From a bacterium (GTDB lineage: Bacteria; SAR324; NAC60-12): a DNA stretch of 64,000 nt. The translations under genes were made by a program, and so were the position numbers. A model generated the notes under the pieces. That model was not told where the DNA came from. It searched no databases and was given only the letters and a program-made list of their open reading frames with translations. The stretch spans positions 1,152,001-1,216,000 of the forward strand of contig CBDBHR010000030.1 of NCBI GenBank assembly GCA_965205865.1. The letters run 5' to 3'. This document shows positions 52,731 to 60,600 of this stretch, piece by piece (the stretch's first letter is position 1; each line of letters starts with the position of its first letter).

Positions 52731-52992
52731 AAGGGATCGATTGTTTTTTTAAGTTAGTTGGTCAAGGTTTGGAAGACAACTATGAAGAGAGCGGGGGTAC
52801 GTTGACCTGAGGAATGAACAGTTGCTTTCATTGGAATTGAAGAGGTGATTCGAGAGGGAGTCTATGAGATTCAGATCAAGTTCTCAAATGGATTTCTCTT
52901 GAAGAGATTCAGAGATATCTTGAAAACAAAAAAAGACTGAAACGAACCATTTTGAAGTTTCCGGAGACACTCAGAAAGGATTGGAGCGAGAA

Positions 52993-53888
52993 ACTAGGTA
53001 AGCTCATAATTTTCCCTTCCGTTCAAAACTTATCCTTCGCAATAAGCTTACCGGCGAGAACTGTTCCCATGCGCCACGCAGATAAGGCTTCGAGTCCTCC
53101 GGCAATGACTTGCCAGGCTTCTACGCTCTTTGCACTTCGATGGCGCATGCTTCTCCGTTGATATCCCATTCGGCTCCACGTCGACCGGACATCAGGTGAC
53201 CACTGGGAATAGCTTCCAGGTGATTGGCAAGAGTTTCCGTCTTGATAAACTGATCAAATCGCGTGACTGCTGTTTGCACGAATTGTGAAGTTTGATAACG
53301 AACATGAATACGCGCCATCACGTCGAACGCCTGCTCTTTTCTCATATTCTGTACTTTATTGACGAATTCCCGGGCAAATCCTTCCTGTTGCAAGTCAATT
53401 GTCAGTTCCGTATTCAGGGCAACGGTCACATTGTTTTCCGTCTGCGCCAGTAAGCCTTCTTTTTCATGACGTTGCAAAAGCACGTCTTCGGGTGCTAAGA
53501 TAATAGTTTCTCCATCCAACTCCAATGTCGTCCGTTTGCCATCCCGCAGCCGAAAAATAGCGGAGGAATCGAGCTCCACAATGGTTCGGGCGACTTGTTT
53601 CATGCGAACTCCGAGCTTCGGTCCGAGCACACTGTAATTGGCCTTGGCGCTGTAAGTCACTAAATCTTCTTCATTATCAGCCACGACGACTTTCTTGATA
53701 TTCAACTCTTCCGTGATCAATTCTTCCATGTCGTTCAAAATCGCTACGGCTTCCGGGTCACGGGTCACCAGAAAAATGCTGGCAAGGGGTTGTCGTATTT
53801 TCAATTGATGCTTGTTACGCAAGGCGCGTCCCATGCTGACTGCCGAGAGCACCAATTCCATTTTCTTTTCGATTGCAGGGTCCCGATA
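52993..53888 (-). repeat. Near-identical duplicate of 57519-58414 (ileS 3' end and downstream DNA)
   Basis: The offset is 4526 bp at both ends, with only scattered substitutions. Confidence 0.97.
53121..53888 (-). pseudogene. ileS: ileS 3' fragment
   Basis: The 246-aa ORF is nearly identical to the IleRS C-terminus. Confidence 0.93.
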
Positions 53889-53901
53889 TTGGGGTCAGGC
53901 T

Positions 53902-55500
53902 GTGCGCCAGGAAAGCTGGCAAGAAATAGAGAGTGAAAGTCTCTTACTCGGTAAGGCAGTAACGACCCGCCGAGTCCCCGAGTCATGAGTGGTTATTCGC
54001 AAGGATAGGCGCTAAGCGTTGACAGGGGAGAACATAGGCTCGGTATTGAGCTCCGAAATCATAGTCTCAGGCGCTGACCTTGTGGTCTGGTGGGGAAGGC
54101 AATATCAACCGAAGGCGTTAGCGTGAGTCTCGGCTGAGCCTGGCGGAGTCAAAGACCCGGTGCATGTGTGGAAGTTTCTTGATCGGAACCTGGGAGATCC
54201 TGAAGACGACTGTCAACATTCTATTGGTAGTCGGATCGGGAAAATTAATAAATAACCCCGATATCTACGTCTTCAGGAAGTCGGACAAGTTCGTAGTAGC
54301 GTGAGCAGCCGACAAGGCTGTGGATTTTGGAGAGTGAAAGTCTCTCTGTCGTCAGTTTCCCATTCGGGCGACTAGCATATCCGGTGCGCTTAGCAGGTAA
54401 CTGCTTTGCGTTCTGCCCGGAAGTAAAAGTCACCGTCTGCTTTGGACGAGAGTCCATAGTGGGAGCCAACAGGGTGGCGAGCAAACCTGGAGGCCTGAAC
54501 ATTAGTGAATGATTGCAGCTCCGAAAGAGACTTCCGTCGTGAATTGGCTTGACGGTGTGTTGCCCAACCGCCGACCCGCTCGCTACTCGGGGAAGGCCGA
54601 AGTTCCAAGGGAAGTAATGGGAACAGGCACCTTGGAGGGAGCCGGAGTATGGATCCAAGCATCCAGGGAAAGATCCACAGAGATAACGTCGGGAAGGGCC
54701 AACTTCCAGCAGGGACTCGCAATAACCTGCAAGGACCTACCGTATAGGGTAACACCGAAATCGGCAGGAGGATTTTGGTCTGGCGCATGAGTCCGTATGA
54801 GCGATGAAGACCGGGTAACGCTGGTCGAGGGGATGCTTGGACATCTCCCTTTTGGAGGTAACACCTCTAAAAGGCAAAGGGGCTCTCGGTAAATGGCGGG
54901 CATTTCATGAACCACTGCCGAACTTGTGTCGGTCAAGAGTGTCACCACAAAGAATGTCGAGCTGGAGATCAAATCACTCACTCCAGGGGTGAATGCAGGC
55001 GAGTGCTTAAGCTTCGGATTGGGTGGGAAGGGTTTCTGGGGAAACGCTGTTGCTGCCAACCGGACTCGGGAAATCCGACCGTCCGGGATGAGAGGGGGGC
55101 TTGCGGAAACGTGATGCAGGGTCTGACGCCCTTTTGCCACGAAACCGGAAACGGGGGATACATTGGAAGTCGTTGACCTAAACATGCGCGCGCCGTATTT
55201 CTACCCGGCATGAAGCGGCGAACAATGAGATCATTTGCAGAGAGTAACAATGCAAAGGAAATCAACGGAGCCTGTGGAGCAAAGGGACTTGGCTGAGAGG
55301 AATTCTGCTTGCCCTCCTGTGTTCGGAACTCAGAGGCCGTAAAATCAGAGAGCGGTTTAAGCAGGGTGCGCCAAACGGCAACGTTTGAGCGTCTGACTCG
55401 AAGCAGGAGCCGGATGCGTTAGCAGCGCACGTCCGGATCTGTACCGGAGGAATGACGAAAGGTGGCTGGAAACCACTATAAGTCAGTTCTTTACGGTGAC
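53902..55500 (+). ncRNA. Outer ORF-less group II intron (53902-54300 + 55210-55500, 690 nt; class E-like by recollection)
   Basis: GTGCG 5' end, DI motifs, DIII split by the inner intron, DV GAGCCGGATGCG...CGCACGTCCGGATC at 55407-55439, and a 3' end ...ACGGTGAC. Confidence 0.9.
54301..55209 (+). ncRNA. Inner ORF-less group II intron (909 nt)
   Basis: GTGAG 5' end, EBS1 GCTACT (54582-54587) complementary to upstream AGTAGC, DV at 55057-55090, and a 3' end CTACCCGGC. Confidence 0.87.
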
Positions 55501-55691
55501 TGCATACTTGTATTTAAATCGTGAAATGCCACTCAGACAAAGGACTGAGACTTTGTTCCTTTCTGAGACCTTCCTTGCTGAACAGACAACGCATTGCTTT
55601 TCAAACCTAGATGAGAGTCAATCTTCAGATAGATGAAAAACTCATGCACTTTAGACAATTTCTTAATACAAATACCCCAGCCTGCCCCCAT

Positions 55692-56864
55692 TTATGTGTT
55701 CGTCCTTTTTTTCGCATAGGACTTGAGTTTAGATTGATATTCGCTGATTCGGTGGTCCTTTCCAGCAATAGATGGGCCATTGGCAATCATCCTCCTGGCC
55801 AACCGAAAGACGCGAAATGGCATACCGAGGTTTGGAATGACTTTGAGCTTGGAGACATTCATCTCACAAGCCGTCAGGTAGCGCATATCACCTTGATGCA
55901 TGTAACCGCAGAAATTCCGTTCCAAACAATCCGCCAGTTCGCGATTTATAAAGGAAACAAGGAAGACAATACAATGAGTCACCCAAGAGGGCGGTACGCG
56001 GGGAACACCATCTGCTGCGTTGACGATACGGTATATTGGCGCGCGAATCTCTTCACCGAATTCCTCATTGCCCACACGCGGACTGCCATACGTGTAGCAG
56101 GCGGCTAGCGAATCACGTTCCAATTCCTCGCATGCGACAACTGCAAGAGCGCCACCCAGGGAATGACCGGTAATATAGAGGGAAAAACCTTCCGGTAAAT
56201 TATCGACTGCGGATTTGACTTGATCACTTACCTGATTGTACGCGGCTCGGAAACCGCTATGAATTTTAACGCCCGCTTCGCCCTTGTAAAATCGGGTATT
56301 CAAATCTGTCTTGACGTCATTCCAACTATTCGCTTCAGTACCGCGAAACGCGAGAACGGCGATTTTATCTTTTTCGCGTCCAGCAAGAAATGCCTGCGTA
56401 TCGTTTATGTTGAAGGTACAAATAAGATTGAAACAGGCATCAGCAAGAGCGTCTTTTAGTTTCTGAAGACCGGGAGGCGTCTTAGCGTCGCCATCGAGTT
56501 TTTGGGCGATATAATTCTTCAGATTTTCTTCCAGTTCCGTAATTCGTCCGGCCGTTCCCTCTCCTCTATCTTTTTTCCATGCAATTTTTGCAAGCTTGGC
56601 TATTGCATCGAGTACTTCCTTGAACTGGTATTCGCCCTCGAATTGCAAATATGCAAGCGCACTCATCTCGCTCATCATCCAAGCCGTGCGATCACTGTAT
56701 GCAGCCCGGTTTGTCGGCAAGACTTTCAAATTTTCCGGTACATTAAAGTAATCACTCATTTTGTGCGCTATCGTATTACAGTGTTTATCGAAGGGATGTT
56801 TGCTTAGATTGCAAGCCCAGTCTCGAAATGGTCTCCCGATGTGGTTTTCCCGGACGTCAAGCAT
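55692..56864 (-). CDS. Lipase class 3 family protein
   Basis: AFRGT, TGHSLGG, YGSPRVGN, DGVPRVP and a terminal DH. Confidence 0.9.
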   Translation of the reverse strand: MLDVRENHIGRPFRDWACNLSKHPFDKHCNTIAHKMSDYFNVPENLKVLPTNRAAYSDRTAWMMSEMSALAYLQFEGEYQFKEVLDAIAKLAKIAWKKDRGEGTAGRITELEENLKNYIAQKLDGDAKTPPGLQKLKDALADACFNLICTFNINDTQAFLAGREKDKIAVLAFRGTEANSWNDVKTDLNTRFYKGEAGVKIHSGFRAAYNQVSDQVKSAVDNLPEGFSLYITGHSLGGALAVVACEELERDSLAACYTYGSPRVGNEEFGEEIRAPIYRIVNAADGVPRVPPSWVTHCIVFLVSFINRELADCLERNFCGYMHQGDMRYLTACEMNVSKLKVIPNLGMPFRVFRLARRMIANGPSIAGKDHRISEYQSKLKSYAKKRTNT

Positions 56865-57062
56865 CCCGCAAGAACATGGATTTTAAAAAAAAACATTTTC
56901 ATGTTCCTCTTTTTATTCAGAATTGCTCAACTCGAGTAAGAGTTAAAGCAGGGATGACAGGCTCGGTAATTTTCGAGCAATATTCACTGCTGTTTTTCCC
57001 AGAGCTTTCACTTGTTTCACCAAGGCGGCCTGATTGAGATTTTGTTGCGTCGCTTCCTGCAC

Positions 57063-57522
57063 TAGTGTATTGCCTGTTTAATACATTTGTATTATTGGTC
57101 ATTTGGTAGACAGGTTTGAGTTTGTTGATAATTTCTTCGGCAGTTTTAGTCCAAACATATGGTTTTGGGTTGCGATTGTGCGCTTCGATGTAACTATGGA
57201 TGGCTTCGGTCAACTCGAGCACGCTTTTGAAGGCGCCTCGCCGTCGCCACTTTCCAACGGAATTGCCGCTGGTTCCAAGCGTTTTGGCAATCTCTTGATT
57301 CTTAAGGCCATCAGCAGCCAACAGGATGATGCGCGCACGAAGAGCGTCTCGCATCGCTCCGGTCTGACGGCGTGCGGTTTTGCTCAATTCATCCCGTTCT
57401 TCCCGGGTCAGTTTTATACTTGGCGCTTTCCTAATGCTGTCTCCATATATGCAAATAAAAAGACAGCTCTAGTATAGCAAACCAAGGAATTATTTACACA
57501 TTAATAAAAGAGCGACACACTA
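57063..57522 (-). mobile_element. Internally deleted (non-autonomous) copy of the IS630 at 40780
   Basis: Both ends are retained with CTAG flanks; about 720 bp of transposase is missing at the junction near 57240. Confidence 0.93.
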
Positions 57523-57646
57523 GGTAAGCTCATAATTATCCCTTCCGTTCAATACTTATCCTTCGCAACAAGCTTACCTGCGAGAACTGTTCCCATGCGC
57601 CACGCAGATGAGGCTTCGAGTCCTCCGGCAATGACTTGCCAGGCTT

Positions 57647-60600
57647 CTACGCTCTTTGCACTTCGATGGCGCATGCTTCTCCGTTGATATCCCATTCGGT
57701 TCCACGTCGACCGGACATCAGGTGACCACTGGGAATAGCTTCCAGGTGATTGGCAAGAGTTTCCGTCTTGATAAACTGATCAAATCGCGTGACTGCTGTT
57801 TGCACGGATTGTGAAGTTTGATAACGAACATGAATACGCGCCATCACGTCGAACGCCTGCTCTTTTCTCATATTCTGTACTTTATTGACGAATTCCCGGG
57901 CAAATCCTTCTTGTTGCAAGTCAATTGTCAGTTCCGTATTCAGGGCAACGGTCACATTGTTTTCCGTCTGCGCCAGTAAGCCTTCTTTTTCATGACGTTG
58001 CAAAAGCACGTCTTCGGGTGCTAAGATAATAGTTTCTCCATCCAACTCCAATGTCGTCCGTTTGCCATCCCGCAGCCGAAAAATAGCGGAGGAATCGAGC
58101 TCCGCAATGGTTCGGGCGACTTGTTTCATGCGAACTCCGAGCTTCGGTCCGAGCACCCTGTAATTGGCCTTGGCGCTGTAAGTCACTAAATCTTCTTCAT
58201 TGTCAGCCACGACGACTTTCTTGATATTCAACTCTTCCGTGATCAATTCTTCCATGTCGTTCAAAATCGCTACGGCTTCCGGGTCACGGGTCACCAGAAA
58301 AATGCTGGCAAGGGGTTGTCGTATTTTCAATTGATGCTTGTTACGCAAGGCGCGTCCCATGCTGACTGCCGAGAGCACCAATTCCATTTTCTTTTCGATT
58401 GCAGGGTCCCGATAGCGTCTCCGGACTTGGGGAAAGTTCGCCAGGTGCACGCTCTCTTCATCTCGTTCGTTTCGCAGATTGCGGTAAATTCCTTCGGCAA
58501 TAAAGGGCACAAAGGGTGCGATCACTTTGGAGAGCTCCACTAAGACCTGATAAAGTACCGCATAGGCTTCCTGCTTGTCTTTTCCCTGTCCCGCCTTCCA
58601 AAATCGGCGGCGGCTGCGTCTAATATACCAATTGGTCAACAAGTCGATGAAGCCCACGAAAGGAGCAACGGATTTATTCAAATCGTAGGCGTCCATGCTG
58701 GCTCTCACTGTTTCGATCAGTCCCTGCAATTTGGACAATATCCAGCGATCCAGGGGATTGGAGGGCATGCTCAGTATTTCCCCGGAGGGCTGCCAGCGGT
58801 CGATAGCGGCATAGGTGGTCAGAAAGGCCAGAGCATTCCAAAGGGGCAGCAAAATAGAACGGGTGGTGTCCACCAGTCCTTTTTCCGAAAACCTGAGATC
58901 GTCTCCGCGTACTGCCGGGGAATTGAGCATGTAGAGACGAATGGCATCCGCTCCATATTGGTCCAACATGTTGATAGGATCCGGATAGTTTTTCAGTCGT
59001 TTGCTCATTTTTTTACCATCTTCAGCCAGGACGAGTCCGTTGACGATGACATTGTGAAAGGCCGGTTTGTTGTACAATGCCGTCCCGACGACGACCAGAG
59101 AATAGAACCAGCCTCTTGTTTGATCCAACCCCTCACAAATAAAATCCGCAGGGAAATTGGCGTCAAATCTTTCTTTGTTTTCAAAAGGGTAATGTTCCTG
59201 ACCATAGGGCATAGAGCCGGATTCGAACCAACAATCGAGCACTTCGGGAATCCGCTTATATATTTTGTCATTTTGAACTATCACCAGATCGTCCACCAAG
59301 TGTTTGTGCAAATCTTCCACTTTTTGTCCGCTCGCTTCTTCCAGTTCTGCCACGCTACCGAAACAGAGACAATCTCCATCCTCACTCTTCCAAATCGGCA
59401 ATGGGGTTCCCCAGAAACGATTTCGACTGATGGCCCAGTCTCTCGCATTTTCCAACCATTTGCCAAAACGTCCATCCCGGATGTGCCCCGGTACCCAATG
59501 AATGGTCTGATTATTTTGCACCATCTGGTCTTTGATTGCTTCCACCTTGACGAACCAGGTCGAGATGGCTTTATAGATGAGGGGGGTGTCCGTTCGCCAG
59601 CAGAAGGGATAACTGTGTTCGATGGTTTCGTGTCTGAGAATTTTGTTCTTGTCTTTCAAATAGCGGATGATCGTTTTGTCGGCCGCCTTGATATTCAACC
59701 CTGCCAGGAATCCCATGTAGGATTGAAAATTTCCGTCATCGTCCACCGGGTCGAACAGGGGTAAACCTTCCCGCAGGCCAATCCGCAAGTCATCTTCACC
59801 AAAGGCTGGCGCTTGGTGGACAATGCCGGTTCCACTTTCATCACTGATATAATCGTCGACCAGCACCCGCCATACCCGGCTGCTGTCCACTCGTCCAATG
59901 GCAAAGTCAAACGGTGGATGATAAGTTTTGTTCCGCAAATCGCTGCCTTTCAAGGCGTCAAGCACTTCATATTCACCGGCTTGCCAATAAGCAGGTATGC
60001 GGTTGGTTGCCAGGTAATAGTTTTCTCCACTGGCCTTTTCCCTGATTTTGACGTAATCTATTTCCGCTCCGACACAGCATGCCAGATTTGCGGGGATGGT
60101 CCAGGGAGTGGTGGTCCATCCTAAATAATAAGTGTTTTCCTCATCAGTCGCCTGGCATTTGAAAGTAATCGAAGGATCCTGCGTCTCCTGATAGTTGAGG
60201 TTGGCTTCGAAATTGGAAAGAGGAGTTGAAAGCCGCCAGGAATAAGGCACCACTTTTCTGCCTTCGTAGATGAGATTCTTCTGCCATAATTGTTTCATCA
60301 CCCACCAAACAGATTCCATGTAGGAGCGATCCATGGTTTTGTAATCGTTGTCAAAATCTACCCAACGGGCCATACGATCCACGGTTTCCCGCCATTCCCT
60401 GGTGTATCGTAATACGATTTTGCGACATGCTTCATTGTAATTCCCTATACCAAATTCGATGATATCCGGACGCCCTTCTAATTGGAGCGCTTGTTCCACC
60501 TCAAACTCGACCGGCAGTCCGTGGCAATCCCAACCAAAACGCCGTTCCACTCGATGGCCTCGCATGGTTTTGTAACGAGGAATGACGTCTTTGATGGTAC

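Follow-up and report, generated by a model that had tools for sequence, protein, structure and literature searches.

The stretch of DNA analysed here (the window, 64,000 nucleotides (nt) of contig CBDBHR010000030.1 in assembly GCA_965205865.1) carries two nested group II introns on its plus strand. The outer intron, O, occupies 53902-55500, and its ribozyme domain III is interrupted by an inner intron, A. Neither of them encodes a reverse transcriptase (RT), and the plus strand of 53902-55500 contains no open reading frame (ORF) longer than 93 amino acids. A first reading of the letters alone, hereafter the original prediction, had already described the locus as an ORF-less twintron and the inner element as a hyperparasite that recognises a conserved intron motif. 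Our follow-up finds that the locus is a real twintron. The outer intron, the domain III placement and the lack of RT ORFs all hold, while the hyperparasite reading is supported for targeting only.

The 5' half of O is matched by RF02005 (group-II-D1D4-6) at 53936-54158 with 168.1 bits, against a gathering score of 49, and this is the sole Rfam family above threshold in the window. A permissive Rfam scan of 53500-56000 yielded the weaker matches. One of them is RF00029 (domain V/VI) at 55405-55500, which covers model positions 1-77 and reaches 31 bits, under the gathering score of 40. The low score is due to the long domain VI, and the same sub-gathering match is seen again in other O copies. 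The ends of O fit GUGYG...AY, with GUGCG at the 5' end and ...GAC at the 3' end. BLAST finds about 40 copies of the O 5' part (53902-54300) at 96-100% identity in the 4.74-Mb assembly. By pairing of 5' and 3' ends, about 16 of them are complete ORF-less copies of 689-703 nt. The family also includes four copies of 1957 nt whose ORF, of about 440 amino acids, is intact, one 2039-nt copy with a broken ORF and several truncated or rearranged copies. The ORF product is a group II RT/maturase (TIGR04416, 342.7 bits, cut-off 300; also PF00078). Its annotated ATG falls within domain III, so the true start of the protein probably lies further downstream. The copy in the window lacks an intron-encoded RT/maturase and keeps only ORF stubs in domain IV. 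These data show that O, at about 690 nt, derives by deletion of the ORF from a family of 1957-nt RT-encoding introns of the D1D4-6 type. O copies are inserted after GGGGTCAGGCY. Many also share their 3' flank (TTTGATTAAATGAAAAGGG or TGCATATTGGTATT..., for example at 55501-55520 of the window), so that, judged by its flanks, the intron seems to lie within a short dispersed repeat. Two O copies stand in tandem at C26:239009-240140.

The insertion point of A lies in the 5' internal loop of O domain III, at CGUAGUAGCG/AUGAAG (the slash marks the junction). For the fold of this region, introns of the D1D4-6 type were gathered from 88 genomes of the phylum, with matches in 16, and ten homologous regions were folded with RNAalifold. 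The basal stem of domain III comprises 7 base pairs (bp) that enclose the motif, and six of these show compensatory double changes. The G-C pair beside the insertion point also covaries, being GC in seven introns and CG in three. This covariation bears out the proposed domain III placement. A itself carries a version of its own target, AGUCCGUAUGAGCGAUGAAG, identical to O positions 387-406 at 17 of 20 positions, which marks the target motif as a conserved ribozyme element of domain III. The site can be compared in 40 O copies: 33 are uninterrupted, four contain A and three contain a different intron. The empty copies read AGTAGC-G-ATGAAG, with the G in 32 and a T in its place in the remaining one. 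An insertion within an intron thus stands beside uninterrupted outer alleles (33 against four, at the same nucleotide), and it is by this comparison that the locus is a twintron.

These empty alleles also decide on the boundaries of A. The original prediction had placed the inner intron at 54301-55209, with a canonical GTGAG 5' end. This would mean that a 3'-exon G was lost on insertion and that the domain III of spliced O would be one base short. Excision of 54302-55209 restores the empty site exactly, whereas excision of 54301-55209 leaves one G missing. The sequence GUGAG does look like a group II 5' consensus, and an A-like fragment at C29:45404 also reads ...CAT/GTGAGC. However, the longer boundary requires an identical 1-nt loss in each independent copy, while the 908-nt alternative is a precise insertion. 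Relatives of A, collected by an exact search with 27 nt of its domain V in the contigs of one genome per species, give the same answer. The 5' ends of 48 relatives were placed by similarity to the first 20 nt of the insert, and 28 of the 29 elements with both ends placed start with G (GGAGC, GUAGC). This start lies one base beyond the position that aligns with G54301, which is itself variable in the lineage. Finally, exon-binding site 1 (EBS1) of A, CGCUACU, forms 7 bp with AGUAGCG, its intron-binding site 1 (IBS1), and the pairing ends at G54301, so that its register puts exon position -1 there. From the lineage 5' ends, the EBS1 register and the restored empty site together we assign the inner intron to 54302-55209, with G54301 as exon; on this sequence comparison the apparent GUGAG is a coincidence of exon G and intron UGAG. 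The boundary at 54301 is very unlikely, and the predicted insertion stands with its 5' junction moved by one base. The coordinates of the features are collected in Table 1.

Table 1. Features of the nested introns in the window and copies of O that carry intron B.
Feature	Positions	Strand	Basis
Outer intron O, whole	53902-55500	+	ORF-less copy of a high-copy family
O 5' exon, TTGGGGTCAGGCT	53889..53901	+	fits family 5'-flank consensus GGGGTCAGGCY; flanks of about 40 copies
O 5' segment: GUGCG 5' end, domain I, domain II, domain III 5' strand to insertion point	53902..54301	+	RF02005, copies
O probable domain II, closing stem CCUGAAGACG ... CGUCUUCAGG	54199..54277	+	direct reading of sequence only
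O domain III basal stem, 5' strand CAAGUUC, partner 55285-55291	54286..54292	+	RNAalifold, 10 related introns
IBS1 for A (AGUAGCG), inside the CGUAGUAGCG/AUGAAG motif	54295..54301	+	EBS1 register, covariation
Inner intron A, 908 nt, ORF-less, 5'-UGAGC...CCCGGC-3'	54302..55209	+	copies, empty-site comparison, lineage
Weak EBS2 candidate of A, GACUU, just after conserved CGAAA	54529..54533	+	lineage EBS2 position
EBS1 of A (CGCUACU), domain I hairpin loop	54581..54587	+	loop/5'-exon covariation in lineage
A's own domain III motif AGUCCGUAUGAGCGAUGAAG, homologous to O target	54790..54809	+	17/20 identity
A domain V: AAC for AGC triad, 2-nt CC bulge, GAAAU loop	55057..55090	+	27-nt core, RNAalifold
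A extended domain VI; unpaired A55203, 7 nt from 3' end	55095..55206	+	RNAalifold, single-sequence fold
O 3' segment: remainder of domain III, remnant of domain IV (RT-ORF stubs)	55210..55500	+	
O 3' segment continued: domain V, domain VI, 3' end ...GGUGAC	within 55210..55500	+	
O copies carrying intron B	C28:326218-327823, C29:729456-728186, C30:653968-655382		outside window

The guide pairing of A is a property of its lineage. At least seven contiguous pairs between the EBS1 loop and the 5' exon, ending at exon position -1, are found in 26 of 27 unique members, compared with 55 of 692 non-self pairings. By chance, about 0.06 complements of a 7-mer are expected anywhere in 908 nt. The original prediction had recognised the hairpin loop with the hexamer GCTACT (54582-54587), and this stands; the pairing extends to 7 nt. 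The position of EBS2 matches the exon in 17 of 28 lineage members.

The ribozyme of A is unusual at several points. Its domain I gives a weak match to RF02003 (D1D4-4) at 54328-54504 (33.2 bits, E-value 4.4e-5, gathering score 49), and three relatives reach the gathering score with 50-54 bits. Its domain V/VI has no RF00029 match at E<=10. In an RNAalifold alignment of 26 lineage sequences, domain V appears as a 34-nt hairpin with a 2-nt bulge before domain VI, invariant in all 26, and its closing pair covaries (GC in 16, CG in nine). The triad reads AAC where canonical introns have AGC, which fits the failure of RF00029 on this domain. Thus, of the two domain V/VI ends originally noted, the outer one is seen by Rfam below its gathering score, and the inner one, missed by Rfam, is recognised by the 27-nt core and by the alignment fold. 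The helices of domain VI carry many compensatory changes in the same 26 sequences, with an unpaired A 7-8 nt from the end. The GGG/CCC helix beside A55203 covaries too (GC in 21, AU in five), and A55203 is a candidate branch point in this modelled fold. Single-sequence folds of A have z-scores that are not significant (+0.89 for the 3' 170 nt and -1.27 for the whole element). The 3' part of A resembles domain V/VI of another nested intron of this genome, intron B, with 40 of 58 positions identical. The ends of A, UGAGC...GGC, lack GUGYG...AY. The lineage consensus is GGAGC or GUAGC ... (G/A)AC, and A departs from its aligned relatives twice, in having U as the first nucleotide, where 28 of 29 rows have G, and G as the penultimate one, where the others have A. 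During the second step of splicing, the first nucleotide of an intron is known to contact the penultimate one (PMC3669008).

How A came to its present places can be judged from its copies. There are four full copies without substitutions, all at the same nucleotide of O domain III and at four different genomic sites with typical O flanks. Three are identical over 909/909 positions, and the fourth departs from them by a one-base indel within a run of G. The O backbones around them differ at 3-10 of 396 positions in the 5' part and at 0-4 of 172 in the 3' part. One host differs from the other hosts at 9-10 of 396 positions, and two hosts tie at distance 0 in the 3' part. Every host has an A-free copy at least as close to it as any other host (distance 0-8). 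For the O in the window, the 3' part is 100% identical to the empty copy C29:725850-725560 and 3-4 positions away from the other hosts. It is without one G that most other copies have. Diverged hosts around a substitution-free A favour, by the argument of Mohr et al. 2010, at least three recent independent insertions of A at one nucleotide. The proposed targeting of an intron motif is borne out by these four copies at one nucleotide in differing backbones, and the expectation that other copies would sit at the same domain III site holds for all four. It does not hold for a 197-nt 5' fragment of A (96% identical) at C29:45404-45599, which follows ...CCCCTGCATG in a transposase-like ORF (GFHPLH motif). 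That place has no relation to domain III, and the fragment stops short of EBS1.

The main rival to repeated insertion is gene conversion. A single insertion of A could have spread among the O repeats by gene conversion or homologous recombination, with no further RNA mobility. The O copies do show mosaic patterns of single-nucleotide polymorphisms (SNPs) typical of recombination; all A copies are alike, with the odd U1 and penultimate G included; and a cognate RT for A is not present. But on the downstream side, differences between the hosts already appear 28 nt from the junction, and on the upstream side within about 100 nt of it; conversion would need tracts of less than 28 nt on one side while carrying a heterology of 908 nt. 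Moreover, a precise junction and an EBS1/IBS1 match would be expected from retrohoming. We consider such a spread from one insertion unlikely. A second alternative is that O::A moved as one RNA, with A still in place, into new GGGGTCAGGCY sites by retrohoming, and that the four copies descend from one composite. The four genomic sites with typical O flanks would suit this, and it is one of two routes discussed for Thermosynechococcus elongatus (PMC2882425). Nevertheless, the four O backbones are not most closely related to one another; the 3' part in the window matches an empty copy better than any other host; the most divergent host has accumulated its 9-10 differences while A has no substitutions in 908 nt; and a domain III split by 908 nt should cripple the O ribozyme. 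We consider mobility of the composite very improbable.

We think it probable that the twintron arose in two steps, multiplication of an ORF-less O followed by EBS1-guided repeated entry of an unrelated ORF-less intron, A. In the first step, which the copies demonstrate, the O family multiplied to about 40 copies at GGGGTCAGGCY sites. In the second, A inserted after G54301 in the internal loop of O domain III, presumably guided by the pairing of EBS1 CGCUACU with AGUAGCG, and most likely through reverse splicing into DNA followed by reverse transcription. It would have entered already diverged O copies, at least three times. Since A has no ORF and no RT ORF was found in the lineage members examined, a foreign RT would be needed, both to help in splicing and to make complementary DNA. 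It may be supplied by the O family, which has four intact RT genes, or by one of two other resident intron families with RTs. RT genes are present elsewhere in the genome: there are ten PF00078 matches, six in the O family, three in a family P and one in a family Q. None of these RTs is linked to an A-type ribozyme, the domain V core of A being found in this genome only in the four A copies. The P and Q families and the other PF00078 RTs were considered as cognate RTs of A or B, and none is evidently related. Because A splits the internal loop of domain III, O would probably be unable to fold or move until A is spliced out. Splicing would then be ordered, inner intron first, as in known twintrons.

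Several observations speak against this two-step scenario. The EBS2 pairing of A is weak, 5 bp with AAGUU (54287-54291), and leaves an unusual 3-nt spacer before IBS1. With its AAC triad, U1 and penultimate G, A may splice poorly or not at all today, as judged from its sequence. The lineage 3' ends with which A is compared were placed by a pattern that required ...AC, and this makes it partly circular that 25 of 25 end in AC. The same ...CCCGAC end is seen, independently of this pattern, when the loci are listed unfiltered. The assembly, 92% complete, contains no RT related to the lineage of A. No binding site for a resident RT was identified in A, and a sensitive blastn comparison found no similarity between the domain IV of A and that of O, where a shared RT-binding site might lie; a single rearranged O copy, described below, is all that connects them. 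The mosaic SNP patterns, which point to homologous recombination among about 40 near-identical O copies, weaken the argument for independent insertions. Finally, we looked at RNA in the contigs of three metatranscriptome runs, with one run of unrecorded kind taken as DNA control. The sole joint across the insert (54301 to 55210, skipping 908 nt) equals the empty allele and is present in all four runs. As the joint is that of the empty allele and the runs are contigs, a spliced product is inseparable from empty copies.

The lineage of A reaches far beyond this genome. Among the matches listed, the 27-nt domain V core is identical in at least 112 loci, which include Bacillota, Desulfobacterota, Actinomycetota, Planctomycetota, Acidobacteriota, Gammaproteobacteria, Chlamydiae and archaea. 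These loci share a conserved continuation, then a variable insert, and they end alike in ...UUUCUAYCC(C)GAC. In none of the 107 unique elements among the matches listed was an RT ORF found ahead of domain V: in 48 the distance upstream to the 5' end is under 1 kb, another 48 have too little flank, five have unrelated ORFs and six are unresolved. Many members lie in other introns. For the 29 members whose two ends could be placed, the flanks, read by eye, put 14 recognisably within another group II intron: the domain V loop holds nine of them, the 3' end of domain V or the bases directly behind it two, and domain I three. Of 75 unique 3' exons, at least 27 are group II sequence by a crude pattern and reading by eye. 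Both counts (14/29 and 27/75) are lower bounds and rest partly on the reading of flanks. Host-intron Rfam matches at gathering score are found at six of 20 loci; other relatives sit in ordinary DNA. The closest relative of A among the loci fetched, judged by reading domain VI sequences, is in a gammaproteobacterial metagenome-assembled genome (L101). The core was not found in any of 87 other genomes of the phylum, nor the DNA of A in any of 40 related genomes, and for this reason the lineage was probably acquired horizontally by this genome.

Several relatives of A lie within introns of the D1D4-6 type, and one O copy contains a 45-nt A-like segment; both hint at O-type introns as hosts. That O copy (C28:30020-30990, 971 nt) is rearranged, with internal duplications, and its segment is 91% identical to A positions 558-600. 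The segment sits in O domain IV at a CGGTAAA microhomology, and the copy could be a template-switch chimera of two intron RNAs. In a Neobacillus pocheonensis record (L110), two lineage members stand head to tail, ...CCCGAC being directly followed by a GGAGCAGCC start, an arrangement that reads as a tandem or nested array in a cultured Bacillota genome. In contigs from sponge-associated metatranscriptomes and metagenomes, window positions 54777-54821 and 55055-55114 have a far greater summed depth than the rest. These two stretches correspond to domain III and domain V of the inner intron; beyond them the contigs turn into dissimilar sequence, a pattern suggesting that other members of the community contain relatives of the inner lineage. 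A metagenome scan for the EBS1 hairpin of A gave no matches. A scan with a degenerate junction (O domain III joined to a lineage 5' end) gave 28 matches that are due to chance: none of the 28 has a lineage domain V within 1100 nt, and the six that were read are all ordinary GC-rich coding DNA. This junction scan thus gave no second example of the exact O domain III/A site.

Taken together, these data allow a broader reading, which we find possible but somewhat short of an even chance. The lineage would be worldwide and never protein-coding, with an AAC triad and non-GUGYG ends, and largely a parasite of the conserved ribozyme motifs of group II introns; in this genome it would have arrived horizontally and been retargeted to domain III. 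Held with the same reserve, this reading would also mean that surveys based on the Rfam domain V may miss the lineage, and that host introns keep an RT supply near. It would equally, and as tentatively, make A a natural double change at the first and penultimate nucleotides, which touch in the second splicing step.

Nesting of group II introns is already known in bacteria. What sets this case apart is the combination of features: an ORF-less inner intron unrelated to its host and placed in the core of domain III, an outer intron that is itself ORF-less, the absence of any RT related to the inner lineage, and the unusual features of that lineage. In Methanosarcina acetivorans, Dai and Zimmerly in 2003 reportedly described homing into related intron ORFs (by the title of their work), with up to five nesting levels. 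The present case differs in having a single level of nesting, a ribozyme domain as target and an inner element not related to its host. The nested introns of M. acetivorans are like ours in their repeated site-specific homing into group II introns, ORF-less ones included, and the host introns are described as a perpetual homing site outside housekeeping genes (PMC4424553).

The closest precedent is found in the twintrons of T. elongatus (Mohr, Ghanem and Lambowitz 2010, PMC2882425), where ORF-less TeI3 'F3' introns lie inside TeI4 'F1' introns. As here, a family multiplied mostly as ORF-less deletion derivatives driven by the RTs of siblings, and other intron copies carry an ORF-less inner intron at a single conserved site. 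Identical inner copies in diverged outer copies were likewise read as recent independent insertions. The same report describes one ORF-less intron in an ORF-less intron (TeI3i in TeI3h) and one natural intron with a 5' T. In contrast to the introns it describes, the lineage of A is unrelated to its host, apparently always ORF-less, and has a non-canonical domain V and 5' end; A occupies the ribozyme core at domain III, and the genome has no RT related to the inner lineage. In Trichodesmium erythraeum (T.e.I7/T.e.I8), domain I is interrupted by a distantly related group II intron with an atypical domain V, and sequential splicing was demonstrated (Pfreundt and Hess 2015, PMC4649490). As that paper presents them, both introns have RT ORFs and occupy a single locus in a conserved protein-coding gene, whereas here both are ORF-less and multi-copy, with no host gene evident. 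The remark in the original prediction that prokaryotic introns nest mostly inside the intron ORF is thus incomplete: the Trichodesmium inner intron is in domain I, and many relatives of A occupy domain V or I of the introns that host them.

The HYERs are bacterial group II RNAs without protein-coding regions (Liu et al. 2024, via PMC12990946). As characterised there, they belong to group IIC, HYER1 has 637 nt, and they act as hydrolytic endonucleases. A is different, with about 900 nt, a D1D4-4-like domain I, a long domain VI with a candidate branch A, and clean intron-type insertions. HYERs, circularly permuted RNAs and protein-free reverse-splicing RNAs were considered as matches for A and are other kinds of RNA. 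According to a 2015 review, ORF-less bacterial introns are rare unless their domain V is unlike known ones (PMC4424553), and a 2022 survey located its introns with RF00029 (PMC8919778). We found no description of the lineage of A in the literature searched, a weak negative (Simon et al. 2008 and Dai and Zimmerly 2003 lay outside the search).

Two further features of the genome and window touch this locus. Intron B is a second, unrelated ORF-less intron of about 905-912 nt, present in three other O copies (Table 1). It uses the same motif of O domain III, where it follows ...GUAGU at a point four bases upstream of that used by A. It has a canonical domain V (RF00029, 44.2 bits) and keeps an RT N-terminal stub. 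Its 5' end is altered in two copies (GCGCAC for GTGCGC), and domain VI is missing in one. The twintron itself lies between the arms of a 905-bp direct duplication, 98.6% identical, at 52984-53888 and 57510-58414 of the window. The duplicated DNA is the 3' end of the isoleucyl-tRNA synthetase gene plus downstream sequence, and the truncated copy of this gene abuts the 13-nt 5' exon of O. Also between the repeats are a lipase-like gene (55692-56864, minus strand) and a transposase-like fragment (56917-57387, minus strand). The duplication could be a rearrangement or an effect of assembly.

For this genome alone, the twintron is a tidy example with precedent. Its wider meaning lies in the inner lineage, whose domain V is missed here by the Rfam model, yet whose 27-nt core occurs in at least 112 of the loci listed, from many phyla. 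If this lineage depends on the RTs of other introns and often uses their ribozymes as landing sites, it would form a second tier of retroelement parasitism. It would then offer a natural system for the evolution of a shared splicing and mobility apparatus, for how far the triad and the termini can drift while an element stays mobile, and for how nesting constrains the order of splicing.

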